From: an uncultured bacterium
GTDB taxonomy: Bacteria > Hydrothermota > Tepidihabitantia > Tepidihabitantales > Tepidihabitantaceae
DNA: 31,902 nucleotides
Reading direction: 5' to 3'
Assembly (NCBI GenBank): GCA_964610135.1
Contig: CAZSUX010000002.1
Location: 1-31,902, forward strand
Shown in pieces: positions 4,239 through 25,116 of the stretch. Within the stretch, counting starts at the first letter, position 1; the number at the start of each line of letters is the position of its first letter. Under the pieces are notes generated by a model, which saw only the letters and a program-made list of their open reading frames with translations, ran no database searches and had not been told where the DNA came from. The position numbers and the translations under genes are program-made.

Positions 4239-6857
4239 ATGCCAGAAGCGAACGGAAGCGATTTTCCCCCAAGGTACGACCCGAAGCCGGTCGAGGCGAA
4301 GTGGTACTCGTTCTGGGAGAAGTCCGGGTTCTTCACCGCCGACGCGAAGTCGCCGAAGCCGAAGTATTCGATAGTCATCCCGCCGCCGAACGTTACAGGT
4401 TCCCTGCACATGGGCCACGCGCTGGACAACGGGCTGCCGGATATTCTCATCCGGCACAAGAAGATGCAGGGGTTTGAGACACTCTGGCTGCCCGGCATGG
4501 ATCACGCCGGCATCGGAACGCAGGTCAAGGTCGAAAAGATGCTGGCCGAAGAGGGCAAGACCCGGTTCGACCTCGGGCGCGAAGGGTTCCTGAAGCGCGC
4601 CTGGGAGTGGAAAGAGAAGTACGGCGGGGAGATTACTGTCCAGCTACGGCGGCTCGGCTGCTGCCTTGACTGGACGAGGCTGCGGTTCACGATGGACGAG
4701 GGACTCTCGCGCGCCGTGCGTGAGGCATTTGTCCGGTACTACGAGAAGGGGCTCATCTATCGTGGGCTCAGAATCGTGAACTGGTGCCCGCGCTGCGGTA
4801 CGGCAGTCTCCGATCTTGAGGTGAAGTTCAGGGAAGAGAACGCGCACCTCTGGTATGTTCGCTATCCGGTGACGCCGGGCACGGGATACATCATCGTGGC
4901 GACGACACGGCCGGAGACGATGCTCGGAGACACCGCGGTGGCGGTGAACCCGAAGGACGAACGGTTCAAAGACCTGGTGGGCAAGATGCTGGAACTACCC
5001 CTGACCGGCAGGAAGATCCCGGTGGTCGCCGATGCGGCCGTGGAGATGGAGTTCGGGACCGGCGCGGTGAAGGTGACGCCTGCACACGACCCGGTTGATT
5101 TCGACATCGGCGAGCGGCACAAGCTCGATCGCGTCCAGGTTATCGGCGACGATGCACGGATGACCGATGCGGCGCCGGCGAAGTACCGGCGCATGACGCG
5201 CGAGGAATGCCGGAAGGCGGTCGTCGAGGATCTTGAGACGCAGGGTTTGATGGAGAAGATTGAAGACTACAGGCACTCGGTCGGGACCTGCGACCGCTGC
5301 GAGACCGTGATTGAGCCGCTGGCAAGCATGCAGTGGTGGGTGAAGATGAAGCCGCTGGCCGAGCCGGCAATCCGCGTGGTCGAAGAGGGCAAAGTGAAGC
5401 TCCACCCCGAGCGGTGGACCAAGGTCTACCTTGAGTGGATGAAGAACATCCGCGACTGGTGCATTTCGCGTCAGCTCTGGTGGGGGCATCGGATTCCGGT
5501 CTGGTACTGCGACTGCGGGGAGATTGTGGTCGCGCGCGAGGACCCGACCGAATGCCCGAAGTGCCATTCGCAGAGACTGCGCCAGGACGAGGACGTGCTG
5601 GATACCTGGTTCTCGTCGGCCCTGTGGCCCTTCTCGACCATGGGCTGGCCGGAGAAGACGTCGGATTTCGCCAAGTTCTACCCGACCGACTTCCTGACGA
5701 CTGACCCGGATATCATCTTCCGCTGGGAAGCGCGGATGATATTCTCGGCGCTGGAGTTCACGGGCACGGTGCCGTTCGACGACGTGTACATCCACTCGAC
5801 CGTGCTGGACAAGAACGGGGCGAGGATGAGCCGGTCCAAGGGTATCGGCGTCGACCCGCTGGAGATATTCGACCTGTACGGCACCGACGCGGCGCGGTTC
5901 ACCATCTGCTACCTTGAGAGCCAGTCCCAGAGCTACCGGCTATGGAACGAGCGGTTCGAACTCGGTCGGAACTTCTGCAACAAGATATGGAATGCATGCC
6001 GATTGGTGGCGGATGAGGTCCGGAAGTCGCAATCCCAGGGACAGCCCCAGGCTCCGGACAACTGGATCCGGCAACGCTTCAACGCGGTGCTCGAGCGGGT
6101 GAACGACGGGCTTGAGCGCTACACTTTCTCCCAGGTGGCGTCGGCGCTGTACGATTTCTTCTGGCACGACCTGTGTGATTGGTATCTTGAGTTCTCCAAG
6201 TCCCGACTGAAGGGCGGCGACTCGGCAGTCAGGCAGACTCTGTATGACGTCTTCCGCGGCAGCCTGCAGCTGCTGCATCCGATCATACCGTTCATCACCG
6301 AGGAATTGTGGCACAGGCTGGGCTTCGGGGGGGGGCAGGAGTCAATCCTGCAGTCGAAGTGGCCTGAGGCGCTTGCGTTGGACGAACGTGAGACTGCGCG
6401 GGTCGAGATGATGCGGGAGTTGATCACGGCGGTGCGGAACATACGGGCGGAGATGGAGGTGCCGGCCAAGACCGCGGTCCGATGCATAGTCAACTCGGCC
6501 GATGCAGGCCTGACCGCGTTCCTCGCCCGCAACGAAAACCTGATTGGTGAGCTGGCCAGGGTGTCCGGGTTGGAGTTCGGGTCGGACCGGCCGGCGAAGT
6601 CGTCGATCGCCGTGCTGTCCGGCTGTGAGGCATACGTTCCTCTCGCGGGTGTGGTCGACGTCGAGAAGGAACTCGGCCGGATGAAGAAGGAAGTCGCGAA
6701 CCTCGAGAAGCTGGTCGCCGGCATCGACACGAAGTTCGCGAACCCCGATTTTGTTTCTCGCGCCAAGCCCGAGGTGGTCGAGGCAGAACGCGGCCGGCGA
6801 GTTGGATTCACAAGCAAGCTCGAACGGCTGAAGAACCAGCTCGAGTCGTGGACATGA
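4239..6857 (+). CDS. valS: Valine--tRNA ligase
   Basis: PPPNVTGSLHMGH (HIGH), DHAGIGTQ, editing-domain TTRPETMLGDTAVAV and GTGAVKVTPAHD, DWCISRQLWWGHRIP, DVLDTWFSS, C-terminal coiled coil. KMSKS appears as RMSRS. Confidence 0.97.
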   Translation: MPEANGSDFPPRYDPKPVEAKWYSFWEKSGFFTADAKSPKPKYSIVIPPPNVTGSLHMGHALDNGLPDILIRHKKMQGFETLWLPGMDHAGIGTQVKVEKMLAEEGKTRFDLGREGFLKRAWEWKEKYGGEITVQLRRLGCCLDWTRLRFTMDEGLSRAVREAFVRYYEKGLIYRGLRIVNWCPRCGTAVSDLEVKFREENAHLWYVRYPVTPGTGYIIVATTRPETMLGDTAVAVNPKDERFKDLVGKMLELPLTGRKIPVVADAAVEMEFGTGAVKVTPAHDPVDFDIGERHKLDRVQVIGDDARMTDAAPAKYRRMTREECRKAVVEDLETQGLMEKIEDYRHSVGTCDRCETVIEPLASMQWWVKMKPLAEPAIRVVEEGKVKLHPERWTKVYLEWMKNIRDWCISRQLWWGHRIPVWYCDCGEIVVAREDPTECPKCHSQRLRQDEDVLDTWFSSALWPFSTMGWPEKTSDFAKFYPTDFLTTDPDIIFRWEARMIFSALEFTGTVPFDDVYIHSTVLDKNGARMSRSKGIGVDPLEIFDLYGTDAARFTICYLESQSQSYRLWNERFELGRNFCNKIWNACRLVADEVRKSQSQGQPQAPDNWIRQRFNAVLERVNDGLERYTFSQVASALYDFFWHDLCDWYLEFSKSRLKGGDSAVRQTLYDVFRGSLQLLHPIIPFITEELWHRLGFGGGQESILQSKWPEALALDERETARVEMMRELITAVRNIRAEMEVPAKTAVRCIVNSADAGLTAFLARNENLIGELARVSGLEFGSDRPAKSSIAVLSGCEAYVPLAGVVDVEKELGRMKKEVANLEKLVAGIDTKFANPDFVSRAKPEVVEAERGRRVGFTSKLERLKNQLESWT

Positions 6858-10331: not shown

Positions 10332-11188
10332 CCAAATACACCTACTACCCAGGCTGCACGCTCTACACCAAGGCACGGAGTCTGGACCTGTGTGCGCGCA
10401 GGGCAGCCGAGAAGGTTGGGTTCGAACTGGTCGAGATGCCGTCATGGAACTGCTGCGGGGCCATATACAACGCCACCAGCGATGACCTCGCGGCCCAGGT
10501 TGGGTCGGTGCGCAATCTGGCCAAGGCCAGCCAGTTGGGTGACAAGCTGGTCACCCTGTGCGCCGCATGCCACAACGTGCTCAAGCGGGTGCAGAACCGG
10601 CTGGACCAGCCGGGCAACGAGGTCGAAAGCGAGCGTCTGAAGACATTCGTTGACGAGAAATTCGAGCAGCCGGTCAAGGTGCTGCACTACCTCGAAGTCC
10701 TGAAGAACGACATTGGCTGGGACAAGGTCAAAGAGAAGGTCACGAAGCCGCTGGTCAAACTCAAGGTTGCGTCCTACTACGGGTGCCTGATGGTCAGGCC
10801 CAGCGAAGTGCTGGAATTCGACGACCCGGAGAATCCCCAGGTGATGGATGACCTGATACGCATTCTCGGGGCGGCGCCCACCAAGTTCGACTTCAAGGCC
10901 GAATGCTGCGGAGGGTATCTGGTCGTGAACCGTCGTGATGTGGCCAAGTCCGCGTCGCAGAGGATCCTGGACAATGCCAAGGCCTGGGGCGCGGAGGCGG
11001 TCGTTACGACCTGCCCGTTGTGCCAGTACAACCTGGACAAGTTGCGGGTGATGACCGGAGGTTCTCTGCCCGTGTTCTACTTCACGCAATTGCTCGGCAT
11101 CGCGGTCGGACTTACGCAGGACGAGCTCGGGCTGGAGCACAATGCCGGCGACCCGGTCGGATTCCTGAAAGCGAAGGGCCTGCTGTGA
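10328..11188 (+). CDS. hdrB: Heterodisulfide reductase subunit B
   Basis: Two CCG domains: YYPGC...NCCG...CAAC and YYGC...ECCGG...TTCPLCQYNL. Confidence 0.93.
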   Translation: MTKYTYYPGCTLYTKARSLDLCARRAAEKVGFELVEMPSWNCCGAIYNATSDDLAAQVGSVRNLAKASQLGDKLVTLCAACHNVLKRVQNRLDQPGNEVESERLKTFVDEKFEQPVKVLHYLEVLKNDIGWDKVKEKVTKPLVKLKVASYYGCLMVRPSEVLEFDDPENPQVMDDLIRILGAAPTKFDFKAECCGGYLVVNRRDVAKSASQRILDNAKAWGAEAVVTTCPLCQYNLDKLRVMTGGSLPVFYFTQLLGIAVGLTQDELGLEHNAGDPVGFLKAKGLL

Positions 11189-13209
11189 CGCAAGACGCAT
11201 CACGCCCCACGCCTGATGCCGGAATCCCGCACGCTGACGTGCCTGGCGTCGAGCCTCGTGCGTCGAGCGTGAGGCGTGTTGGCGTTTTCGTCTGCCACTG
11301 CGGTATCAACATCGCCGGAACGGTCAAGATTCCCGAGGTGCTGGAGAGGGTCGGGGCGATGCAGGGCGTGGCGGTGACCAAGGACTACAAGTACTGCTGT
11401 TCGGATCCGGGCCAGCAGATGATCCGGGACTCAATCAAGACTGACAAGCTGGACCGGGTCATCGTTGCCTGCTGTTCGCCGACGCTGCACGAGACGACGT
11501 TCCGCAACGCCTGCGGCGAGGCGGGGCTGAATCCCTACCTCTGCGAGATTGCCAATATCCGCGAGCAGTGTGCCTGGGTGACCGAAGACAAGGACAAGGC
11601 GACCGACAAGGCGACCGAGATCATCCGGACCACAAAGGCCAAGGTTGAGAACGACCTCCCGCTTGAAGCCATCACCGTGCCAATCAACAAGCGCGCGCTG
11701 GTAGTCGGGGCAGGGATTGCCGGCATCCAGGCCGCGCTGGACATCGCCAACGCCGGGTACGAGGTCGTGCTGGTGGAGAAAGAGCCCTCCATCGGCGGAC
11801 ACATGGCCCAGCTTTCCGAGACTTTCCCTACTCTGGACTGCTCCCAGTGCATCTTGACCCCGCGGACGGTCGAGACGGGCCGGCATCCGAAGATAAAGCT
11901 GATGACCTATTCCGAAATCGACAGCGTCTCCGGTTATGTCGGCAACTTCAAGGTGAAGGTCAGACAGAAGGCGCGCTACGTCGACTTCAAGACCTGCACA
12001 GGCTGCGGCGCGTGTCTCGAGAAGTGCCCGGGTAGAACCGAGTCACGGTTCGAGCGCGGGCTGACCAAAGGCAAGGCGATCTACCGGTTGCTGCCGCAGG
12101 CCGTGCCTAACCGGCCCGTGATTGACGCCAAGGCTTGCGTATACCTGACCAAGGGCAAGTGCGGCATCTGCGCCAAGGTCTGTCCGACCGGCGCCATCCG
12201 CTACGACGACACCGACAAGTTCGTCGAGGAAGAGGTCGGCGCAATCGTGCTGGCGACCGGGTATGAGTTGTTCGACGCGACCAAGCTCGGGTCGTACGGC
12301 TTCGGGCTTGTCCCGGACGTGATTGATGGTCTCGCCTTCGAGCGGCTGCTCTCTGCTTCCGGGCCCACGTCGGGCGAGGTCAAGCGACCCTCAGACGGCA
12401 AGACGCCGAAGAAGATTGTGTTCGTGCAGTGCGCAGGCTCTCGCGACTCGACCGCCGGGATGCCATACTGCTCGAAGATCTGCTGCATGTATACGGCCAA
12501 GCAGGCGATACTCTACCGGCATCGGGTTCACGACGGGCAGGCGACAATCTGCTACATTGATGTGCGGACCCCGGGCAAGGGGTTCGAGGAGTTCTACAAG
12601 CGCGCAACCGACGACGGTATCCAGTATCTGCGCGGCAAGGTCTCCAAGATATTCCGGCAGGGCGACAAGGTTGTGGTCTGGGCCGCGGACACGCTGGCCG
12701 GCCGCAAGGTAGAACTCGAAGCGGACATGGTTGTGCTCGCCACGGCAGTCATCGCCAACCCGGACGGCGTGGCCTTGGCGCGCAAGCTGAAGACCCAGAT
12801 CGACACGCACGGTTTCATGACCGAGGCGCACCCGAAGCTCAGGCCGGTCGAGACCCTGACCGCTGGGTTCTTCCTGGCCGGTTGCGGCCAGGGGCCCAAG
12901 GACATCCCGGAAACCGTGGCGCAGGCATCGGCAGCGGCCGCCAAGGTCCTGGCAATGTTCGGGAACACGCGCCTTACCCACTCGCCGACGACAGCTCAGG
13001 TTGACGAGGAGATCTGCGTGGGCTGCGGCTACTGCGAGCGGACGTGCGCCTACGAAGCGGTGAAGGTCGACCCGGCGAAGAAGAAGGCGGTCGTGAACGC
13101 GGCCCTCTGCGAAGGGTGCGGAGCGTGCGCGGTTGCCTGTCCGTCGGGTGCGATGACGCACAAGAACGCCACCAAGAAGTCGATATTCGAGATGGCGGAT
13201 TCGTTCTAG
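11185..13209 (+). CDS. hdrA: Heterodisulfide reductase subunit A, canonical type, with a repeat-derived N-terminal extension
   Basis: GVFVCHCG, ACCSP, NIREQCAWV, FAD motif GAGIAG, DCSQCILTP, inserted ferredoxin, QCAGSRD..YCSKICCMY, C-terminal 2x[4Fe-4S]. GTG 11185 overlaps the hdrB stop. Confidence 0.93.
   Translation: MTQDASRPTPDAGIPHADVPGVEPRASSVRRVGVFVCHCGINIAGTVKIPEVLERVGAMQGVAVTKDYKYCCSDPGQQMIRDSIKTDKLDRVIVACCSPTLHETTFRNACGEAGLNPYLCEIANIREQCAWVTEDKDKATDKATEIIRTTKAKVENDLPLEAITVPINKRALVVGAGIAGIQAALDIANAGYEVVLVEKEPSIGGHMAQLSETFPTLDCSQCILTPRTVETGRHPKIKLMTYSEIDSVSGYVGNFKVKVRQKARYVDFKTCTGCGACLEKCPGRTESRFERGLTKGKAIYRLLPQAVPNRPVIDAKACVYLTKGKCGICAKVCPTGAIRYDDTDKFVEEEVGAIVLATGYELFDATKLGSYGFGLVPDVIDGLAFERLLSASGPTSGEVKRPSDGKTPKKIVFVQCAGSRDSTAGMPYCSKICCMYTAKQAILYRHRVHDGQATICYIDVRTPGKGFEEFYKRATDDGIQYLRGKVSKIFRQGDKVVVWAADTLAGRKVELEADMVVLATAVIANPDGVALARKLKTQIDTHGFMTEAHPKLRPVETLTAGFFLAGCGQGPKDIPETVAQASAAAAKVLAMFGNTRLTHSPTTAQVDEEICVGCGYCERTCAYEAVKVDPAKKKAVVNAALCEGCGACAVACPSGAMTHKNATKKSIFEMADSF
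11187..11278. repeat. Inverted pair of heptamer arrays (5+5 units)
   Basis: GACGCAA GACGCAT CACGCCC CACGCCT GATGCCG (11187-11221), 22-nt spacer, TGGCGTC GAGCCTC GTGCGTC GAGCGTG AGGCGTG (11244-11278). AGGCGTG is the reverse complement of CACGCCT. Confidence 0.75.
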
Positions 13210-13215
13210 GGCACG

Positions 13216-16200
13216 ATGACCAGTGACCAGGTACCAGTGACCAGCCCCGAGCCGGCGAACGGGCCAGTCGGTGCAGTGCTGGTAGTGGGCTCGGGAATCG
13301 GCGGCATCCAGGCGGCGCTGGAACTGGGCGATGCCGGGTTCAAGGTCTACCTGCTCGACGAGGGGCCGGCCATCGGCGGCGTGATGGCGATGCTCGACAA
13401 GACCTTCCCGACCAACGACTGCTCGATGTGCATCCTGTCGCCGAAACTGGTCGGCACCGGCAGGCACCAGAACATCGAGCTCGTCAACTACAGCGAGCTC
13501 TTGAGCCTTGATGGCGAGCCCGGGCGGTTCAAGGCGAAGATTCGCCGGAAGCCGCGGTTCGTCCTCCTCGACAAGTGCACGGGTTGTATGGACTGCACCA
13601 AGGTCTGTCCGGTCGAGGTGCCGGACGAGTACAACCAGAAGCTGGCGATGCGCCGGGCGACCTATAAGCTCTACCCGCAGGCGATTCCCAATGCGGTAGC
13701 TATCGAGAAGAACGAAGGCAAGGCCCCGTGTCGGCTGGCCTGCCCATCCGGCGTCAACGCGCAGGGATACGTTGCGCTCATCTCGCAACGGAAGTTCAAG
13801 GAAGCCTACGAACTGGTGCGCGAGCGGTTGCCGTTCCCTGGCATCTGCGGTCGCGTCTGCCACCACCCGTGCGAGCAGGAGTGCAACCGCAAGGAGTACG
13901 AATCACCCGTTTCCATCCGGACCCTGAAGCGGTTCGCCGCCGACTACGTGTATTCCAACAAGATCGAATACCCCGTCATCAAAGCACCGGCAGCGGAACG
14001 CTCGGAGCAGGTCGCAGTAGTCGGGGCCGGCCCGGCCGGGCTTACCTGTGCGCTCGACCTGCGCGCCAAAGGCTACAAGGTGACCGTGTTTGATGCCACG
14101 GACAAGCCGGGCGGGATGATGCGCTGGGGCATTCCGGCGTACCGCCTGCCGCGCGAGACCCTTGACCGGGAAATCAAGGACATCACCGATACCGGCGTCG
14201 ATCTGAAGCTCAAGAGCCCGGTCAACGGGACCGCGGGCGTTCAGAACCTGCTCGGACAGGGGTTTTCTGCAGCGTTCGTCGCCCTCGGCTGCTCCAAGAG
14301 CCGGACCCTGAAGATTGACGGGATGGATCTTGATGGCGTGTTGCACGGCATCGAGTTCCTGCGCGACGTCAACGCCGGCAAGAAGCCGGCGGTCGGCAAG
14401 CGAGTCGTTGTCATCGGCGGCGGCAACGTCGCGGTTGACGTGGCGCTGTGCGCCCGACGGCTCGGCGCCGAGGACGTGACGATGACGTGCCTGGAGTGCC
14501 GCGAGGAAATGCCGGCCCACGAGTGGGAAATCTCCGACGCGACGGCCGAGGGTGTGAAGCTGAACCCCTCGTGGGGACCGCAGGCGGTTGCTGGTGAGAA
14601 CGGCAAGGTGACCGGACTCCGGACAATCGAGTGCACGCGGGTCTTCGATGACGCGCACAAGTTCAACCCGCAGTTCGGCTGCGTCGAGGGGTTTGTTCCT
14701 GCCGACACCGTTATCCTTGCCATCGGCCAGGCGGTGGATGCCGACGGGTTTGACGGGTTCGAGCGCGGACCGGGCGGTACGTTCAAGGTCAATCCGCTGA
14801 CATTTGAGACCACTCTGCCCGGTGTCTTCGCCGGCGGCGATATGGTTTCGGGACCGGCGTCGGTGATTGAGGCCGTGAATGCCGGCCACGAGGCCGCGAT
14901 TTCGATTGATCGGTTCATCAACCGGCAGGATCTGGCCGAAGGACGCGCGAAGCCGAAGGAACAGGCGGCCAAGGCCGAAGAGTCGGCAGCGGCCAGAGCG
15001 AAGATCGAGCGGCGCGAGCGTGCCGAGGAAGTTTCGTTGCCGGCAAGTGAGCGCGTCGCAGACTTCCGTGAAGTAGCGCAGGGTTTCACCGAAGAGCAGG
15101 CAGTCGCTGAGGCACAGCGCTGCCTGAACTGCGGCATCTGCTGCGAGTGCCTCCAGTGCGTCACCGCCTGCGAGGCGAAGGCAATCGACCACACGCAGAC
15201 CGCGTCCGAGGAGGAACTCGAAGTCGGTGCGGTCGTTCTTTCCGCCGGGTTCAAGGAGTACAAACCGACGGGTGAATACGGCTACGGTTACGGCCGGTAC
15301 CCGAACGTGGTGACCAGCCTCGAGTTTGAGCGCATACTCTCCGCCTCCGGGCCGTACGAAGGCCACGTGAAGCGGCCGAGCGACCTGACGCAGCCGAAGA
15401 AAGTCGCTTGGATTCAGTGTGTCGGTTCGCGCAACGCCGAGCACTACTATTGTTCGTCGGTCTGCTGCATGTACGCGACCAAGGAAGCGGTCATCGCCCG
15501 CGAGCACTGCGGCGGCAACCTCGACTGCCACGTCTACTACATGGACATGCGTTGCTTCGGCAAGGACTTTGAGAAGTATTACGACCGGGCGAAGGATGAG
15601 TACGGCGTCCAGTTCCGGCGATGCAAGGTGAGCGCGGTGCAGAGGAAGGGACAAAGGACGAGGGACGAAGGACAAAGCCCGGACGGGACCGACGAGGACC
15701 TTCTGATATCGTACGAGGATGAGGCGGGGACACTGCGCGAGGAGGAGTACGACATGGTCGTGGTCTCGACCGCGCTCGCGGCCAATCCGCGTGCGGTTGA
15801 GATGGCAAAGCGCATTGGCGTAGCCACCGACGACCAAGGGTTCGTGAAAACCGACCGGTTCGAACCGGTGCTGACCGACCGGCCCGGCGTCTACGCCTGC
15901 GGCGCGCTGGCTGAGCCGAAGGACATTCCCGAGACCGTGACCGAGGCGACCGGCGCGGCCGGCGCAGTAGCGGTTCTGCTCGCCCCGGCTCGCAACACGC
16001 TGGTCCGGCCCAAGGTGTACCCGCCGTTCCGTGACGTGTCGGGTGAGGAGCCGCGCATTGGCGTGTTTATCTGCAACTGCGGCATCAACATCGGCGGCGT
16101 GGTGAAGGTGCCGAGCGTGGTGGAGTACGCCCGCACGCTGCCGAACGTGGTTTTTGTCGACGAGAACCTTTTTACCTGCTCTCAGGACACGCAGCAGAAG

Positions 16201-17793
16201 ATCCGTACCGCTATCGAGGAACACAGGCTCAACCGCGTCGTTGTCGCGTCCTGCACGCCGCGGACGCACGAGCCGCTGTTCCAGGAAACGCTGGCCGAGG
16301 CCGGCCTGAACCCGTACTTGTTCGCGATGGCCAACATCCGTGACCAGTGCTCGTGGGTCCACATGCAGGAGCCGGACGAGGCGACCGAGAAATCGAAGGA
16401 GCTGGTTAGGATGGCGGTGGCCAACTCGCGACTGCTCCGTCCGCTCTCGTCATCGCCGCAGGCGATCGTTCAGAAGGCGCTTGTCATCGGTGGCGGGCTG
16501 GCCGGGATGACCTCGGCAATCGCGGTTGCCGACCAGGGATTTGAAACCTTCCTTGTCGAGAAGGGTGACCGACTGGGCGGCAACCTGCTCAACCTGAGAT
16601 ACACCGAGACCGGCGATGACTTGGTCAGCTACGTGGCACGGCTGGAGCAGCGGCTGAGGGCCCACCCGTTGGTGAAGGTCTTCACCGGCGCCGAGTTGAC
16701 TGCTGTCACGGGCTACGTTGGTAACTACAAAACGACGGTCCAGAGGGAAGGACAAAGGACGAAGAACGAAGGGCAGAGCCAGGACGGATCCGAGGTCATC
16801 GAACATGGCGTCTTCATCGTCGCCACCGGTGCGGAGGAGTACCGGCCGACCGAATTCCTCTACGGCAAGGACCCACGTGTCCTTACCCAGACTGAGTTTG
16901 AGCAAGTCCTCTCCGGTTCACCTTCACTTGATCCCTCGACCCCTCGACCTCTTGATCCCTCTTCTCTCAAGCACGTAGTGATGGTCCAGTGTGTCGGGTC
17001 GCGGGAGAAAGAGCATCCATGGTGTTCGCGCATTTGCTGCACCGAGGCGGTGAAGAACGCGCTCAAACTGAAGAGCATCAGCCCGAAGGCGAATGTCTAT
17101 GTTCTATATCGGGACATGCGTACCTACGGGTTCAAGGAGAAGCTGTACCGCGACGCGCGCGAGGCAGGTGTGATGTTCGTCCGATTCGACCCGGAGACGA
17201 AGCCGGAGGTGACGAGCGCCGACGGCCGGCTGCACGTGTCGGTGTACGACCCGGTACTGCAGCGCCGGCTCGGCATCAACGCCGACCTGCTGGTGCTGTC
17301 GGCCGGCGTGGTCCCGGCGAAGTCGAACCACGACATCGGGCAACTGCTCAAGGTCCCGCTCAACGAGGACGGTTTCTTCCTCGAAGCGCATATGAAACTC
17401 AGGCCGGTGGATTTCACGACCCGCGGCGTGTTCATGGCCGGCATGGCGCACAGCCCGCGCCGGATACCCGAGACCGTGGCTCAGGCGTACGCGGCCGCGG
17501 CGCGCGCCTGCTCGATAATCTCGCACAAGGAGCTTTCGACCGAGGCGGTCGTGGCCGAGGTGAACCCGCGTTGGTGTACGGGCTGCGGCATGTGCGAGGA
17601 GATTTGTCAGTACGAGGCGGTGCGGCTCAACCCCGTGACCGGTAAGTCCGAGGTGACGGCGGTGCTGTGCCAGGGCTGCGGCGCGTGCGCGGCCGCCTGT
17701 CCGTCGGAGGCGATAAAGCTCAAGGGCTTCGAGGCGAAGAATGTCATTTCGATGGTCGACGCGGCATTGGAAGGGTGTGGAATAGATGGCTAA
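13216..17793 (+). CDS. hdrA: HdrL-type large HdrA: two HdrA FAD modules plus a GltD/NfnB-like pyridine-nucleotide oxidoreductase insert
   Basis: GSGIGG and DKTFPTNDCSMC; insert CRLACP...GICGRVCHHPCEQECNR...GAGPAG...GGGNVAVD...GVFAGGD; YCSSVCCMY; internal GVFICNCG; second GGGLAG; WCSRICC; C-terminal ferredoxin. Confidence 0.9.
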   Translation: MTSDQVPVTSPEPANGPVGAVLVVGSGIGGIQAALELGDAGFKVYLLDEGPAIGGVMAMLDKTFPTNDCSMCILSPKLVGTGRHQNIELVNYSELLSLDGEPGRFKAKIRRKPRFVLLDKCTGCMDCTKVCPVEVPDEYNQKLAMRRATYKLYPQAIPNAVAIEKNEGKAPCRLACPSGVNAQGYVALISQRKFKEAYELVRERLPFPGICGRVCHHPCEQECNRKEYESPVSIRTLKRFAADYVYSNKIEYPVIKAPAAERSEQVAVVGAGPAGLTCALDLRAKGYKVTVFDATDKPGGMMRWGIPAYRLPRETLDREIKDITDTGVDLKLKSPVNGTAGVQNLLGQGFSAAFVALGCSKSRTLKIDGMDLDGVLHGIEFLRDVNAGKKPAVGKRVVVIGGGNVAVDVALCARRLGAEDVTMTCLECREEMPAHEWEISDATAEGVKLNPSWGPQAVAGENGKVTGLRTIECTRVFDDAHKFNPQFGCVEGFVPADTVILAIGQAVDADGFDGFERGPGGTFKVNPLTFETTLPGVFAGGDMVSGPASVIEAVNAGHEAAISIDRFINRQDLAEGRAKPKEQAAKAEESAAARAKIERRERAEEVSLPASERVADFREVAQGFTEEQAVAEAQRCLNCGICCECLQCVTACEAKAIDHTQTASEEELEVGAVVLSAGFKEYKPTGEYGYGYGRYPNVVTSLEFERILSASGPYEGHVKRPSDLTQPKKVAWIQCVGSRNAEHYYCSSVCCMYATKEAVIAREHCGGNLDCHVYYMDMRCFGKDFEKYYDRAKDEYGVQFRRCKVSAVQRKGQRTRDEGQSPDGTDEDLLISYEDEAGTLREEEYDMVVVSTALAANPRAVEMAKRIGVATDDQGFVKTDRFEPVLTDRPGVYACGALAEPKDIPETVTEATGAAGAVAVLLAPARNTLVRPKVYPPFRDVSGEEPRIGVFICNCGINIGGVVKVPSVVEYARTLPNVVFVDENLFTCSQDTQQKIRTAIEEHRLNRVVVASCTPRTHEPLFQETLAEAGLNPYLFAMANIRDQCSWVHMQEPDEATEKSKELVRMAVANSRLLRPLSSSPQAIVQKALVIGGGLAGMTSAIAVADQGFETFLVEKGDRLGGNLLNLRYTETGDDLVSYVARLEQRLRAHPLVKVFTGAELTAVTGYVGNYKTTVQREGQRTKNEGQSQDGSEVIEHGVFIVATGAEEYRPTEFLYGKDPRVLTQTEFEQVLSGSPSLDPSTPRPLDPSSLKHVVMVQCVGSREKEHPWCSRICCTEAVKNALKLKSISPKANVYVLYRDMRTYGFKEKLYRDAREAGVMFVRFDPETKPEVTSADGRLHVSVYDPVLQRRLGINADLLVLSAGVVPAKSNHDIGQLLKVPLNEDGFFLEAHMKLRPVDFTTRGVFMAGMAHSPRRIPETVAQAYAAAARACSIISHKELSTEAVVAEVNPRWCTGCGMCEEICQYEAVRLNPVTGKSEVTAVLCQGCGACAAACPSEAIKLKGFEAKNVISMVDAALEGCGIDG
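13217..13244. repeat. Heptamer array (4 units) forming the first codons of hdrL
   Basis: TGACCAG TGACCAG GTACCAG TGACCAG; translates as MTSDQVPVTS. Confidence 0.75.
15640..15692. repeat. 53-bp in-frame module, copy 1 (4 heptamers GGACRAR)
   Basis: CAGAGGAAG GGACAAA GGACGAG GGACGAA GGACAAA GCCCGGACGGGACCGA; peptide QRKGQRTRDEGQSPDGTD. Confidence 0.8.
16741..16793. repeat. 53-bp in-frame module, copy 2
   Basis: CAGAGGGAA GGACAAA GGACGAA GAACGAA GGGCAGA GCCAGGACGGATCCGA; 44/53 identical to 15640-15692; peptide QREGQRTKNEGQSQDGSE. Confidence 0.8.
16927..16958. repeat. Octamer array (4 units) in frame in hdrL
   Basis: CTTGATCC CTCGACCC CTCGACCT CTTGATCC; peptide LDPSTPRPLDP just before VVMVQCVG. 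Confidence 0.8.
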
Positions 17794-19336: not shown

Positions 19337-20137
19337 ATGGAAGAGACAAAGGGACAAAGGGACAAAGTGGCTGGGAGTCCGACTTCTTCACTAGGTCCCT
19401 TGATTCCTCGATCCCTTGATCCCTCTTCCGCAGAACTGCTCGTCAACGACCTCGACACTGAGTTCAAGACCCGGCTGGCTGAGAAGTACGGCGACACTGG
19501 GTTCATGCACTGCTTTTCCTGCGGGTCGTGTTCGGCATCCTGCCCGGTGCGGAAGCTTGATGAGAAGTACAACCCGAGGCGCATCATCCGGATGGCGATA
19601 CTCGGTATGAAGGATGAAGTCTACAAGTCCGAGTTCGTCTGGATGTGCTCCTACCACACGACCTGCCTGAACCGCTGCCCCCAGAAGGTGAACATCGGCG
19701 AGGTGGCCGATGCGGTCTCGCGCATGGCGGAAGAGGAGCGCAAGCGGCCGGCTTCCCACAAGGGCAAGGTGACGCAGGCGGAGCGGGACCGGGACTTCAA
19801 GCAGCAGGTGATGAAGGCGGCCAGCAGCGTTTCGGCCTGTTTCACCTGCGGTTCCTGCACCGCGGTCTGCCCGGAGACGCTGTTCGACCCGGAGAAGGAC
19901 CCGCGGCGGTTCATCCGCAAGGTCAACCTCGGGTTGCGGGACGAGGCGCTGGCCGACGAATTCAAGGATATCTGCGCGATTCACTACCGCTGCATCTCGC
20001 GCTGCCCGCAGGGAGTGCAGATCAGCAAGATCATGAATGCCATCAAGCAGTGCGCAGTGGAAGATGGCCACAGCTACCCGGCGTCACTGGCGGCGCTTGA
20101 GAAAGCGGACCGGTCGAAGTCAGGTGCTAGAAGCTAG
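19337..20137 (+). CDS. Tandem (double) HdrC-like protein; second cluster motif of each domain is CxxHxxCxxxCP
   Basis: Domain 1 CFSCGSCSASCP / CSYHTTCLNRCP; domain 2 CFTCGSCTAVCP / CAIHYRCISRCP; NPRRIIR and DPRRFIR linkers as in HdrC. Confidence 0.8.
   Translation: MEETKGQRDKVAGSPTSSLGPLIPRSLDPSSAELLVNDLDTEFKTRLAEKYGDTGFMHCFSCGSCSASCPVRKLDEKYNPRRIIRMAILGMKDEVYKSEFVWMCSYHTTCLNRCPQKVNIGEVADAVSRMAEEERKRPASHKGKVTQAERDRDFKQQVMKAASSVSACFTCGSCTAVCPETLFDPEKDPRRFIRKVNLGLRDEALADEFKDICAIHYRCISRCPQGVQISKIMNAIKQCAVEDGHSYPASLAALEKADRSKSGARS
19343..19423. repeat. Imperfectly inverted pair of octamer arrays at the start of the tandem hdrC gene
   Basis: GAGACAAA GGGACAAA GGGACAAA (19343-19366), spacer, TAGGTCCC TTGATTCC TCGATCCC TTGATCCC (19392-19423). 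Confidence 0.75.
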
Positions 20138-20146
20138 AGCAAGCAC

Positions 20147-20548
20147 GTGACAGACGAAGCCAAAAGCCAAGAGCCAAAAGCCAAAAGTCAAAGCAGCGGA
20201 CCGGCTGACTTACGTGACAGGCTGCTTGATTTCGCTGCGAGTTGCTTGAAGCTTGGCGGTCGGCTGACGCGGACGACCCCGGGCCGGTATGTGGCCGGGC
20301 AGTTGATGCGTTCCAGCGCTTCTGCCGGGGCGAACTACATGGAGGCACGCGGCGCGGAGAGCCGCGCCGATTTCGTCCACAAGCTCCAGGTGGCACTCAA
20401 GGAAGCCAAGGAATCCCAGTACTGGCTCGCTCTCGTCGTCCGAGCGGAACTACTCAATCCCGGCTTTGTTCAGGTTCTGGCCGACGAAGCAGACGCTTTG
20501 GTTCGAATCCTCGCGAAGTCGGTCGTTACCGCCAAAGGACACAGATGA
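20147..20548 (+). CDS. Four-helix bundle protein (23S rRNA intervening-sequence protein / Avd-like family)
   Basis: DLRDRLLDFA...GQLMRSSASAGANYMEA...SRADFVHKLQVALKEAKESQYWL...EADALVRIL matches the family pattern QL.RS..S..AN..EA....S..DF..KL.I..KEA.E..YWL. Confidence 0.9.
   Translation: MTDEAKSQEPKAKSQSSGPADLRDRLLDFAASCLKLGGRLTRTTPGRYVAGQLMRSSASAGANYMEARGAESRADFVHKLQVALKEAKESQYWLALVVRAELLNPGFVQVLADEADALVRILAKSVVTAKGHR
20157..20191. repeat. Left heptamer array of the four-helix-bundle cassette
   Basis: AAGCCAA AAGCCAA GAGCCAA AAGCCAA AAGTCAA. Confidence 0.9.
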
Positions 20549-20553
20549 CGGTT

Positions 20554-20588
20554 TTGCGTCTTGGCTTTTGGCCTTTGGCTTTTAACTT
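20554..20588. repeat. Right (inverted) heptamer array of the four-helix-bundle cassette
   Basis: TTGCGTC TTGGCTT TTGGCCT TTGGCTT TTAACTT; TTGGCTT is the exact reverse complement of AAGCCAA. Confidence 0.9.
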
Positions 20589-20605: not shown

Positions 20606-23600
20606 ATGCCTGAGCCTTCGACTGGCAAGATCGGTGCTGTATTGGTTGTCGGCGGAGGAATCGGTGGCGTGCAGTCTGCGCTCGACCTGGCCGATTCCGG
20701 CTACAAGGTCTATCTGGTTGACCGTGCACCAGCCATCGGCGGCATCATGGCGATGCTCGACAAGACCTTCCCGACCAACGACTGCTCCATGTGCATCCTC
20801 TCACCCAAGCTGGTCGCTGCCGGACGGCACAAGGACATCGAACTGATGACCCTGACCGAGGTGCTGGGAGTCGAGGGAGAGCCGGGCAACTTCAAGGTTC
20901 GGCTCAAGCGCCATGCCCGCTCAGTCGACCTGTCGAAATGCACCGGCTGCGGCGACTGCTTGACCAAGTGTCCGGTCAAAGACCTGCCGAACGAGTTTGA
21001 GGGCGGACTTTCGAATCGCCGCGCCATCTACCGTCTCTACGCGCAGGCAGTGCCGAACGCGCCGATGATTGACCGCGAGCATTGCCTGAAGTTCACCAAG
21101 GACAAGTGCGGTGCCTGCCAGAAGACGTGCAAGGCCGGCGCCATCGACTACGCTCAGCAGGATGAGGAGTTCACGGTCGAGGTCGGCTCAGTCGTGGTCG
21201 CCGCCGGCTCGAAGATAGCGCCGACCGCACTCCGGCCCGAGTACGGCCACGGCCGATACCCCAACGTCGTGTCCAGCCTCCAGTTCGAGCGGATCCTGTC
21301 TGCGTCCGGGCCATACGGCGGTCACGTCAAACGTCCGTCCGACGGCAAGGCGCCGAAGAAGGTCGCGTGGCTGCAGTGCGTCGGGTCGCGTGACGACTCA
21401 GTCGAGCGCGGTTATTGCTCGGCGATGTGCTGCATGTACGCAGTCAAAGAGGCGGTCATTACGAAGGAACACTCGAGCAATGTCGAGCCGACCGTCTTCT
21501 ACATGGACATGCGTTCGTACGGCAAGGACTTCGACAAGTACGTCGACCGGGCCGAGCAGCAGTATGGAGTCCGTCTGGTCCGCGCTCGCGTCCCGGAAAT
21601 CCGCGAGGACCCGGGTACGCACAACCTCACACTCCGCTACGCCTCGGACGGAGGCAGCTTTGCCGAGGAGTTTGAAATGGTCGTGCTCTCCTGCGGCTTC
21701 GTGCCGCCGCCCGAACTCGTGGACCTGGGCAAACGGCTCGACTTCGAGCTGGACAGATACGGGTTCGCCGCCACCGACGATTGGGCGCCCGCTCGGACGA
21801 GCCGCCCCGGCGTCAGTGTGGCCGGCAGTTTTGCCCAGCCGATGGCTATCCCGGAGACTGTGACCGGCGCGTCGGGAGCGGCCGCTGCGGCCGAGGAGAT
21901 TCTCGCGGCTGAGCGCGGCCGTTTGGTCGCAGTCAAGGAGATGGCGGCTGAGACCGACGTGCGCGGGGAGGCGCCGAGGATAGGCGTGTTCGTCTGCCAC
22001 TGCGGCATCAACATCGGCGGAGTCGTGCGCGTCCCGGAAGTCGTCGAGTTCGCCCGGACCCTGCCTCACGTGGCCTATGCCGAGGAGAACCTGTACTCAT
22101 GCTCGGGCGACACCCAGGACAAGATCAGGGACCGGATCCGCGAGCACCGGCTCAACCGGGTAGTGGTTGCTTCCTGCTCGCCTCGGACTCACGAGCCGCT
22201 GTTCCAGGCCACGGTCGCCGAGGCGGGTCTGAACCCGCACCTGTTCGCGATGACCAACATCCGCGACCAGTGCTCGTGGGTGCACATGAAGGAGCCGGAC
22301 AAGGCGACTGAGAAGTCCAAGGACCTGGTGAAGATGGCGGTCGCACGGGCCATGCGCCTGAAGGCGCTGCCCAAGGTCAAACTGCCCGTGACCAGAGCTG
22401 GATTGGTCGTCGGTGGCGGCATCGCCGGCATGACGGCGGCTCTGTCTTTGGCCGGAGAGGGATTCGATGCATTCCTGGTCGAGCAGGACAAAGAACTCGG
22501 CGGGAATGCCCGCAGCATCGCCCGTACCGTCGAGGGCGACGACGTGCAGAAGCGTTTGAAGGAACTGGCGGACAAGGTCACCAGCCATCCTCGCATCAAG
22601 ACGTTCCTCAATGCGCGCATCAAGGCGATAGACGGCTTTGTCGGCAACTACCAGACCACGCTTGAGGGTGAGGGCACCGTCCTGAAGCACGGAGTCGTGG
22701 TGGTGGCGACGGGCGCGCAATACCGCACACCGACCGAGTACTGCTACGGCCAGAGTTCTCGCATCGTGAGCCAGAAGGAACTGGAAGAGATGATCGAGGG
22801 GTCCAAGGGTCCACGGGTTGGCCTCAGCGGCCTCCGTCAGACGGCGCAGGGGGCCAGGCCTTCGGAGTCACCCGAACCCCGGAACCCCCGAACCCTGGAA
22901 CCCACCTCGCTTCGCTCGGTGGTCATGATCCAGTGCGTTGGGTCGCGCGAGGCTGACCGGCCCTACTGCTCGCGCATCTGCTGCACCGAAGCAGTGAAGA
23001 ACGCGCTGGCAATCAAGGAACTGAACCCCGAGACCGACGTCTGCGTCCTCTATCGCGACATCCGTACCTACGGCATGCGTGAGGAGTACTATCGGCAGGC
23101 GCGCGAGAAAGGTGTCGTCTTCATTCGCTTTGCGCCGGAGACCAAGCCCGATGTACGGGTCGTCGACGGCCGGCCGATTGTCACTGTCAACGACCCGATA
23201 CTGGGCCGGGAAATCGAACTTCAGCCGGATATCCTCGCGCTGTCGTCCGGAATCGTGCCGCAGTCCGGCTCCGAGGGACTGGCCCAGATGCTCAAGGTAC
23301 CGTTGAACAGCGATGGGTTTTTCCTCGAGGCCCATATGAAGCTGCGGCCGGTGGATTTCGCCACCGACGGTGTGTTCATGGCCGGGCTGTGCCACTTCCC
23401 CAAGTTCATCGACGAGGCTACTGCCCAGGCCCAGGCTGCTGCCAGCCGGGCCGCCACGATACTGTCCCGCGACACGCTCGATGCGGAAGCAACGGTAGCC
23501 AACGTGGACCCGGCCAAGTGCTCGGCCTGTCACATGTGCGAAGGGCTCTGTGCCTACCATGCCATCGAAGTGAAGGTCGTGAACGAACGCACCGGCAAGC

Positions 23601-23734
23601 AGGCCGCGGTCGTCAACGAAGCGATGTGCAAAGGCTGCGGCGCCTGCGCCGCCAACTGCCGCTCGCTGGCCATCGATATCCGCGGCTTCCAGTCCGATAA
23701 CATCAGCCGCGAAATCGCGGCGCTGCTGGACTAA
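20606..23734 (+). CDS. hdrA: HdrA-like protein with two FAD modules (no GltD insert)
   Basis: GGGIGG, DKTFPTNDCSMC, ferredoxin insert, YCSAMCCMY, internal GVFVCHCG, GGGIAG, YCSRICC, C-terminal CSACHMC/CKGCGAC; paralogous to 13216-17793. Confidence 0.92.
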   Translation: MPEPSTGKIGAVLVVGGGIGGVQSALDLADSGYKVYLVDRAPAIGGIMAMLDKTFPTNDCSMCILSPKLVAAGRHKDIELMTLTEVLGVEGEPGNFKVRLKRHARSVDLSKCTGCGDCLTKCPVKDLPNEFEGGLSNRRAIYRLYAQAVPNAPMIDREHCLKFTKDKCGACQKTCKAGAIDYAQQDEEFTVEVGSVVVAAGSKIAPTALRPEYGHGRYPNVVSSLQFERILSASGPYGGHVKRPSDGKAPKKVAWLQCVGSRDDSVERGYCSAMCCMYAVKEAVITKEHSSNVEPTVFYMDMRSYGKDFDKYVDRAEQQYGVRLVRARVPEIREDPGTHNLTLRYASDGGSFAEEFEMVVLSCGFVPPPELVDLGKRLDFELDRYGFAATDDWAPARTSRPGVSVAGSFAQPMAIPETVTGASGAAAAAEEILAAERGRLVAVKEMAAETDVRGEAPRIGVFVCHCGINIGGVVRVPEVVEFARTLPHVAYAEENLYSCSGDTQDKIRDRIREHRLNRVVVASCSPRTHEPLFQATVAEAGLNPHLFAMTNIRDQCSWVHMKEPDKATEKSKDLVKMAVARAMRLKALPKVKLPVTRAGLVVGGGIAGMTAALSLAGEGFDAFLVEQDKELGGNARSIARTVEGDDVQKRLKELADKVTSHPRIKTFLNARIKAIDGFVGNYQTTLEGEGTVLKHGVVVVATGAQYRTPTEYCYGQSSRIVSQKELEEMIEGSKGPRVGLSGLRQTAQGARPSESPEPRNPRTLEPTSLRSVVMIQCVGSREADRPYCSRICCTEAVKNALAIKELNPETDVCVLYRDIRTYGMREEYYRQAREKGVVFIRFAPETKPDVRVVDGRPIVTVNDPILGREIELQPDILALSSGIVPQSGSEGLAQMLKVPLNSDGFFLEAHMKLRPVDFATDGVFMAGLCHFPKFIDEATAQAQAAASRAATILSRDTLDAEATVANVDPAKCSACHMCEGLCAYHAIEVKVVNERTGKQAAVVNEAMCKGCGACAANCRSLAIDIRGFQSDNISREIAALLD
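22794..22902. repeat. Inverted pair of octamer arrays in frame in the third hdrA
   Basis: TCGAGGGG TCCAAGGG TCCACGGG (22794-22817), 53-nt spacer, CCCGAACC CCGGAACC CCCGAACC CTGGAACC (22871-22902). Confidence 0.8.
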
Positions 23735-25048: not shown

Positions 25049-25116
25049 CATTGTAGATTGCGGATTGCAGATGGCAGATGGCAGAGTTCGGCGGCCGGCG
25101 TCTGGCGTTTGGAGCT
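25049..25116. repeat. Heptamer arrays filling the flxC-flxB intergenic gap
   Basis: CATTGTA GATTGCG GATTGCA GATGGCA GATGGCA (25049-25083), then CGGCGTC TGGCGTT TGGAGCT (25096-25116), which are only weakly complementary to the first array. Confidence 0.7.

Follow-up and report, generated by a model that had tools for sequence, protein, structure and literature searches.

Two 54-nt repeat modules lie in frame within hdrL (13216-17793, forward strand), a gene in a 31,902-nt stretch of DNA from an uncultured bacterium of the Hydrothermota (contig CAZSUX010000002.1 of assembly GCA_964610135.1, positions 1 to 31,902; the whole stretch is called the window below). We consider it probable that both modules are left halves of a family of selfish palindromic elements, and that the module at the upstream position (site 1) was overwritten by the type of module found at the downstream position (site 2). 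The host gene was identified from its open reading frame (ORF), translation and Pfam matches as an HdrL-like gene of 1525 aa.

Anatomy of the two modules in hdrL

We compared the two copies and found that the 53-mers at 15640-15692 and 16741-16793 were identical at 44 of 53 positions without any gap. Both began in frame 0 of the ORF and translated as QRKGQRTRDEGQSPDGTD (15640) and QREGQRTKNEGQSQDGSE (16741). The original prediction for this DNA, made from its letters, had reported this match, flanks included, together with the translations, and all of these were reproduced. The better limits of the modules were 15640-15693 and 16741-16794 (forward strand), each comprising 54 nt or 18 codons (codons 809-826 and 1176-1193). 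The site 1 module, a heptamer-type left half of an array element, consisted of a CAGAGG head, the array AAGGGACA-AAGGACG-AGGGACG-AAGGACA and the tail AAGCCCGGACGGGACCGAC. The site 2 module, also a left-half element, read CAGAGG-GAAGGAC-AAAGGAC-GAAGAAC-GAAGGGC-AGAGCCAGGACGGATCCGAG, which is a degenerate (GAAGGAC)n array with the tail GAGCCAGGACGGATCCGAG. Tandem Repeats Finder (TRF) detected period-7 arrays at 15649-15677 and 16747-16772, with 4.1 and 3.7 copies, respectively. Both modules therefore had the head-to-tail 7-nt units in several copies that characterize heptamer repeats. The intergenic location typical of such repeats was not found, since both arrays and most of the other arrays in the window lay inside long ORFs. 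The hdrL modules themselves contained no ORF. The pattern GGACRAR in three copies matched only these two loci in the window, with 7 overlapping matches against 0.02 expected from shuffled sequences. No more than ten window offsets reached at least 42 of 53 identities, and those others that were identified came from hdrA paralogs aligned collinearly.

Logan contigs from three salt-marsh runs (X1, X2 and X3) covered site 1 with zero differences, and in two of the three runs site 2 or part of it was also covered with zero differences; an X2 contig spanned site 2 without differences. The identity of both sites in contigs of separate runs ruled out an assembly artefact. As to phase variation by a change in unit number, no indels were seen in the contigs of four runs, although rare variants can hide in contigs. 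Length differences of the modules from strain to strain were in frame.

Site states in orthologs and relatives

The protein alignment comprised 59 orthologs (P numbers denote protein orthologs and L numbers DNA loci). In most of the 59, the hairpins of both sites were short (site 1, SR-V-EGS-EDL; site 2, xxDGxx), and several orthologs that were 90-92% identical had no module at either site. An 18-residue insert was present at site 1 in seven orthologs, among them P0001-P0004, P0008 and P0010, and shorter site 1 inserts were found in a more distant ortholog clade. Site 2 was hypervariable: P0001 had the QRKGQRTKDEGQSQDGTE type and P0007 a short QRKGQSQDGTE, the inserts of P0034, P0035 and P0037 were long and composite, and others held SDx arrays or a non-repeat RPTGNGRQPTT. 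When the states were placed on a neighbor-joining (NJ) tree of the orthologs they were interleaved, indicating rapid turnover or allele exchange.

At the DNA level, site 1 of L001, L005 and L006 read CARMGG-(RAGGGATC)4-GAGTGACG... and was exactly 54 nt long, and that of L003 carried (RAGGGAYA)4, again in exactly 54 nt. Site 1 was thus occupied by a 54-nt octamer module in the four relatives named, and it was empty in L002, L246 and L247. The original prediction had envisaged two insertions of one unit, and this part of it was not supported, as site 1 is already filled by the octamer module in relatives. The heptamer module of site 2 was also found in L001 and L128. It was shorter in L002, where site 2 equaled the L001 module less exactly three heptamers (21 nt). 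Site 2 of L003 and L005 held 9-mer SDx arrays that look like local expansions. The closest relative, P0001, had the octamer type at site 1 and the heptamer type at site 2. A lake-water strain combined a heptamer-type site 1 core with the CAACGG head seen in L001, and its site 1 is a mosaic.

In its unit form, (AAGGGATC)4, the octamer module of site 1 reads as G3N5 repeated four times on the sense strand (L001 2960-2991, L005 3149-3182 and L006 12425-12456), a pattern from which a G-quadruplex could form. The window modules had 2 and 1 GGG tracts, below the four tracts, with loops of at most 7 nt, required for a G-quadruplex, the heptamer-type site 1 having lost two of the four. Syntenic DNA differed widely in array load, as L247 had no 7- or 8-mer arrays in 24.5 kb and L003 had 19 arrays of period 7-9 in 18.6 kb. 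Both L247 (a contig of GCA_040961665.1) and L003 come from sister strains of the window, with HdrL about 90% identical.

Proposed conversion of site 1 by site 2

Site 1 of the window matched site 2 of L001 at 46 of 54 positions, site 2 of L128 at 45 and its own site 2 at 44, in every case without gaps. In contrast, it matched the orthologous site 1 modules at only 25-32 of 54 positions when ungapped, and at 37-43 when 6-8 gap columns were allowed. Relative to the octamer modules at site 1 of the relatives, it showed three 1-nt losses and a 3-nt gain. The higher paralogous than orthologous similarity, together with the equal length and phase and the common ends, fits an ectopic conversion from site 2 to site 1. 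A stepwise change from an octamer to a heptamer array would need frameshifted intermediates. The high identity between the two sites was specific to the window lineage and the one lake-water strain.

We propose that an octamer-type module would have occupied site 1 first, as it does in the closest relatives, and that in the window lineage the heptamer-type module of site 2 would then have replaced the core of that octamer module. This would probably have happened through ectopic gene conversion or by template switching, with the common head (CGGTS-CAGAGGAAGGGACA) and tail (GACGGGAC) as guides. Such an overwriting of site 1 would account for the 44/53 identity, with site 2 as the probable donor type. 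Copy number would also shift by slippage, in in-frame steps of three units only. The idea that the site 2 tail is purely ancestral sequence and so fixes the direction of copying was dropped, as this tail also matches the loop start of complete elements; the direction consequently rests on the distribution of array types among the relatives.

The family of palindromic elements

TRF detected about a dozen 7/8-mer arrays in the window. Many arrays were paired. We take the family to be lineage-specific and to have spread through the genomes of certain strains of this WOR-3 lineage. A complete element consists of (RAGGGAYM)3-4, a loop AAGTG[GA]CGGA...CACTY and an inverted (GATCCCTY)3-4, with a total length of 70-90 nt. 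Of the three hallmarks of miniature inverted-repeat transposable elements (terminal inverted repeats, a target-site duplication and a cognate transposase), inverted arms were the one observed in the sequences compared. In the left half, the terminus of the element (GGAAG...) is joined to an arm of 7-8-nt tandem units and to the loop start, and the site 1 tails of the relatives (GAGTGACGG...) matched the loop start of complete elements. Complete elements were clean in-frame insertions of 75-81 nt with empty orthologous sites in sister strains. In L003, the ValRS gene carried a 75-nt in-frame element and a GATase-like gene one of about 75 nt. The original prediction that a discrete DNA unit had been copied was borne out to the extent that the elements have conserved non-repeat parts and are present or absent as whole units, but not as a double insertion into naive sites.

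The window had a complete hairpin element at 19337-19430 (forward strand), composed of (AAGGGACA)3, AAGTGGC...CACT and (GATCCCTY)3-4. It supplied the ATG and the first ~27 codons of a ferredoxin-like gene (19337-20137), that is, a new 5' end of 81 nt. The site was filled in the window, L003, L005 and L006 and empty in L001, L246 and L247. In strains without the 5' element, the ferredoxin-like gene has a TTG start further in.

A third site in hdrL (site 3; 16922-16964, forward strand) held a right-half element with the loop end CTTCACTT followed by an inverted octamer arm (GATCCCTC/GACCCCTC), for which TRF gave a period of 8. It translates as SLDPSTPRPLDPS and was 84% identical to 19386-19428. 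Site 3 was present in P0002, P0006, P0008 and P0014, missing from most orthologs, and empty at the DNA level in L001, L002 and L006. In total, hdrL thus carries two left halves (sites 1 and 2) and one right half (site 3). At the equivalent of site 3 in the hdrA paralog, the window had a pair of arrays (22799-22903, forward strand; GGGTCCAA x2.5 and GAACCCCG x3.8), L006 and L246 had a standard octamer hairpin element, and L247 was empty. The TTGAT units of site 3 fall only in the phase without an in-frame TGA, indicating selection for an open frame. Inserts in essential genes would survive only where their length is a multiple of three, their orientation and phase are free of stops, and they lie in a tolerant loop or at a terminus.

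We folded the elements as RNA. The ValRS element of L003 gave -50.1 kcal/mol (z -5.7) and window 19337-19432 gave -39.3 kcal/mol (z -2.7), and the hdrL modules had no hairpin potential (z -0.18 and -0.06). We infer that selection may act against hairpins within the ORF. Pairing of the site 2 and site 3 arrays as a split hairpin was considered and ruled out, since the 246-nt fold gave a z of -0.17. No Rfam family matched in the window.

The window ValRS gene (4239-6857) has three extra codons (GGGCAGGAG, GQE) at 6327-6344, the position of the 75-nt element in L003; three other strains have nothing there, and the GQE codons may be a footprint or a seed of the element. Two ferredoxin-like genes meet at an (ATTGCAG)n array in the window (25050-25085), L006 (21300-21331) and L246 (21649-21678). 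The position of this array is the same across several strains, and L247 is without it.

The array types of the family are widespread. We found (RAGGGATC)3 in more than 119 stretches of species-representative genomes, mostly from Phycisphaerae and other Planctomycetota, WOR-3, Gemmatimonadota and others, with the arrays frequently paired as hairpins, and (GGACRAA)3 in more than 120 metagenome contigs of widely differing composition. Among 126 (GGACRAA)n arrays from metagenomes, however, the CAGAGG head and GGACGG tail occurred together only in the hdrL ortholog L128, so that head and tail are not a genome-wide signature of heptamer arrays. A head-array-tail module that is specific to hdrL favours copying within the gene over a dispersed donor. 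A strict pattern of array end plus tail had no match in the metagenome collection, which evidently excludes the JGI contigs of the orthologs.

Position of the modules in the protein fold

In HdrL, the first HdrA-like module is interrupted by a GltD-like insertion of the NAD(P)H/FAD type; the second HdrA-like module follows, and a 2x[4Fe-4S] domain lies at the C-terminus. Pfam matches were to Pyr_redox_2, Fer4_20, FAD_oxidored and Fer4. Residues 635-1525 aligned with HdrA (5odc_A) at E=5e-154, and the two HdrA-like modules of HdrL were 33% identical when aligned with each other (E=8e-30). The FAD domain, the Cys-rich N-terminal domain and the ferredoxin domains of the HdrA fold were all found in HdrL, in addition to the GltD-like insertion. 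The best homologues, of 92-50% identity, came from metagenomes, and those with names were largely from candidate division WOR-3. The host enzyme is conserved and probably essential.

Residues 635-1525 were modelled by AlphaFold2 using 46 orthologs. The model had a pLDDT of 82 and a pTM of 0.81, and its TM score to HdrA structures was 0.77-0.79 when normalised to the target. In this model, site 1 (fragment residues 175-192) was coil between strands E170-176 and E195-200 with a pLDDT of ~53, and site 2 (fragment residues 542-559) was coil between strands E537-543 and E558-563 with a pLDDT of 64. Both modules are thus predicted at the tips of beta-hairpins, in coil of low confidence, in keeping with the tolerant surface loops that had been proposed for them. 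The translated product would be a charged loop of 18 residues, probably disordered, with no catalytic role, and its presence there may be close to neutral.

Alignment to HdrA placed the counterpart of site 1 at the 461-466 hairpin and that of site 2 after residue 238, which is the point where the ferredoxin domain is inserted in canonical HdrA. The first HdrL module also carries an inserted ferredoxin domain at this point. When the two HdrL modules were aligned with each other, site 1 paired with FDPETKPEVTSADGRL of module 2 and site 2 paired with the position directly before EELEVGAVVLSAG in module 1. Since sites 1 and 2 pair with different places in the HdrA alignments, they are not equivalent positions; they belong to different domains of the two HdrA-like modules. 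The modules are accordingly not a shared feature of duplicated HdrA units inherited by all orthologs, the objection that the original prediction had raised against itself, as the two sites do not correspond and many orthologs of 90-92% identity are without the module. Site 2, at the ferredoxin-domain insertion point of the HdrA fold, is a structurally permissive hot spot.

The HdrA-HdrA paralog (20606-23734, forward strand; 1042 aa) had short loops at both equivalent places (...PEIREDPGTHNL... and ...YQTTLEGEGTVL...) and was without the modules there, exactly as the original prediction had stated.

Alternative explanations

We weighed other origins for the likeness of the two sites. Insertion of a mobile element of heptamer type into each site independently, from a third donor locus and with no exchange between the hdrL sites, appears unlikely. 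Whole elements of the family do occur as unit insertions beside empty sites, and metagenomes hold heptamer-armed hairpins with an AGTCAG-like loop start, such as L148. However, site 1 of four relatives already holds an octamer module of identical boundaries and identical length (54 nt), making the window allele a replacement and not a new insertion; besides, the 31.9 kb contained no third copy of the module, and the head and tail in question were confined to the hdrL ortholog among the 126 metagenome arrays. An independent local origin, in which slippage would have expanded proto-repeats in each hairpin and the similarity would reflect convergence on slippage-prone heptamers, is in our view quite improbable. 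The common non-repeat head CAGAGGAAGGGACA is ancestral at neither site, the modules agree in length and phase, and paralogous similarity exceeds orthologous similarity. The range from array-free to array-rich sister strains is also hard to square with a universal property of polymerases. In favour of a local origin are the unit-like seeds in empty alleles and the evident slippage at site 2, where L003 and L005 have 9-mer SDx arrays and the modules of L001 and L002 differ by exactly 21 nt. Heptamer repeats are in addition reported to be over-represented in bacteria, which has been put down to polymerase slippage (PMC4692102). The original prediction had the arrays moving or being templated as units instead of arising by slippage; the copying of units stands, and slippage acts as well, as the 21-nt step of L002 and the SDx arrays indicate.

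That selection acts on functional loops of the protein, such as charged loops for docking or regulation, with the DNA similarity as a by-product, we hold to be very improbable. A site 1 length of exactly 18 residues in seven orthologs and the strong charge of the sequences would suit such loops, but they are missing from orthologs of 90-92% identity, they are hypervariable, their repeat type switches between strains, the model confidence is low, and the same repeats occur in unrelated genes and intergenic DNA. The chance that assembly or binning misjoined repeat-containing reads is negligible: Logan contigs frequently break near arrays, yet contigs of separate runs span site 1 (X1, X2 and X3) and site 2 (X2) with zero differences, and both modules are in frame within conserved unique coding sequence.

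Several points count against left halves of palindromic elements with overwriting of site 1 by site 2, the explanation that we nevertheless prefer. The conversion is inferred from sequences of five orthologous loci, one metagenome fragment and one contig, and the NJ tree of the proteins may be blurred by recombination. Empty alleles hold short stretches resembling the junction of arm and loop (site 1, GTCGAGGGCAGTGAGGAC; site 2, CGGAAGTCCGACGGC), so that part of the head or tail may be ancestral and some local origin is conceivable. Pfam detected no transposase, RAYT or reverse transcriptase, and hence no mobility gene, among 20 ORFs of the window, and a target-site duplication was not definable at the filled and empty sites compared. 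Surface exposure was judged solely from pLDDT and secondary structure.

PF05635 genes and heptamer arrays

A PF05635 cassette lies at 20147-20583 (forward strand; Pfam, TRF). Its gene (20147-20548) encodes a four-helix bundle of the family of 23S rRNA intervening-sequence (IVS) proteins, and its arrays are inverted, with (AAGCCAA)5 at 20157-20192 and (TTGGCTT)3.3 at 20561-20583. PF05635 (S23p) is related to the retroelement protein Avd. Copies in the relatives were found at L005 7734-8171, L006 22395-22831, and L246 16730-17199 and 22757-23382. Four of five PF05635 copies in relatives were bracketed by arrays, and their positions in the hdr operon differed between strains. The array-free locus L247 had no PF05635 gene.

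PF05635 genes were also met among the loci that had been selected for arrays (~8 loci in 1.41 Mb), an enrichment that decided nothing and came from a biased sample; plasmids were used instead. This sample was chosen by protein similarity alone: 26 plasmid records had a homologue, and nine were fetched from nine taxa (L249-L257) of the cyanobacteria, Chloroflexota, Bacteroidota and Spirochaetota, including the genera Nostoc, Planktothrix, Gloeocapsa, Anabaena, Euhalothece, Chlorohelix, Bernardetia and Treponema. In all nine, each end of the PF05635 gene had a heptamer array no more than about 150 nt away, in most cases within about 60 nt, and the arrays were mostly inverted pairs. In L254, an Anabaena cylindrica plasmid, the PF05635 gene and its arrays were wedged between cas2 and cas1, and in the unrelated plasmids L251 and L252 they had a DUF1156 gene on one side and a Swt1-family HEPN gene on the other. 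These positions suggest that PF05635 cassettes insert into operons of defence-type genes.

The link between the hdrL modules and IVS-type cassettes is the repeat type that they have in common, and nothing further. One could imagine that the arrays, including the hdrL modules, are footprints or ORF-less derivatives of IVS-type cassettes with PF05635 cargo, spread across phyla in and between protein genes as well as in rRNA, and that the protein or a partner enzyme helps to write or copy the arms at microhomology; we regard this as rather doubtful. If true, it would give the heptamer repeats of bacteria, cyanobacterial ones included, a concrete genetic agent. Our literature search returned no paper linking PF05635 genes outside rRNA with heptamer arrays, and none containing these array strings.

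Other features of the window

The hdrL gene belongs to an hdrCBA-hdrL-mvhD cluster that has a second hdrA-hdrA paralog. At its 5' end, TRF detected a (TGACCAG)x4 heptamer array (13217-13244, forward strand), which covers codons 1-10 (MTSDQVPVTS). The N-termini of the hdrL orthologs are hypervariable and likewise derived from repeats, and the reverse complement of the TGACCAG unit flanks the PF05635 gene of Euhalothece (L257). The listed hdrA ORF (11020-13209; 729 aa) has a GTG start and overlaps hdrB by ~170 nt, and the relatives have 641-674 aa; the true start is probably near 11190-11250, beside a small period-14 repeat at 11245-11277.

Comparison with known systems

Our observations mean that two loops of a redox enzyme that is conserved and probably essential can harbour selfish repeat DNA in translated form, and exchange of inserts between loops of one gene would be a fast way of making and remodelling disordered surface segments. 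The closest concept is that of the Rickettsia palindromic elements (RPE), selfish palindromes that lie in frame in conserved protein genes (Ogata et al. 2000, reviewed in PMC2229807). Like RPE, the elements described here are in frame, probably tolerated by the protein and present or absent between relatives, with no transposase of their own known. In-frame presence together with empty sites was found in the genes for ValRS, the GATase-like protein and the ferredoxin, in the hdrA paralog and at hdrL sites 1-3. The palindrome was found in the complete members of the family and not in the hdrL modules, which are half elements. RPE consist of 105-146 bp of unique sequence, whereas the present elements have 70-90 nt with arms of tandem 7-8-nt units, and the phylum differs. 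Homology to RPE families is unlikely from the composition (tandem G-rich octamers).

The 23S rRNA of Coxiella and Leptospira contains IVS with an S23p/PF05635 ORF and stem-forming inverted flanks, which are suspected to be mobile (PMC4990558). In Coxiella, 2-3 strain-variable GACAGAT heptamers precede the S23p ORF, and RNase III cuts at the first repeat (PMC4990558). An S23p-family ORF between stem-forming heptamer flanks is also what we found at 20147-20583. The known examples are in rRNA helices, whereas here the cassettes lie between protein genes and the ORF-less hairpins and halves are translated inside ORFs.

Heptamer repeats are known from several other bacteria. Those of Calothrix PCC 7601 are known as the STRR sequences. 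Calothrix PCC 7601 has three tandem heptanucleotides, Xanthomonas has GGGAATC and Nostoc GGGGAYT (PMC4692102). Coding DNA of Xanthomonas is reported to be depleted in its arrays (PMC4692102), and the TAACTGA arrays of Beggiatoaceae to occur mainly between genes (PMC4679880). Like the cyanobacterial and Xanthomonas arrays, the present ones have 7-nt units (here also 8 nt) in about four copies, form inverted pairs now and then and vary extensively between close relatives. Being G3N5 x4, the octamer arrays have a motif of the G-quadruplex type as do those of Xanthomonas. Elsewhere such arrays are reported as mainly intergenic, whereas the ones here are in-frame parts of essential genes and form discrete hairpin elements whose loop is conserved. 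Sister strains range sharply from array-free to array-rich, and arrays regularly flank PF05635 genes; taken together, these findings make the puzzle of over-represented 7-nt repeats in some bacteria testable by gene content and insertion sites.

The tandem repeats of Borgs reportedly have units that are multiples of three. They are described as fast-evolving, located in ORFs, giving rise to disordered protein segments and arising independently (PMC9879509). In our case the units are of 7-8 nt, the frame is kept only by steps of three units, and the modules have common non-repeat ends and are, on our interpretation, copied. The combination of tandem-unit arms, a conserved loop, in-frame location in essential genes, half elements and proposed exchange from loop to loop is what differs from the known systems.

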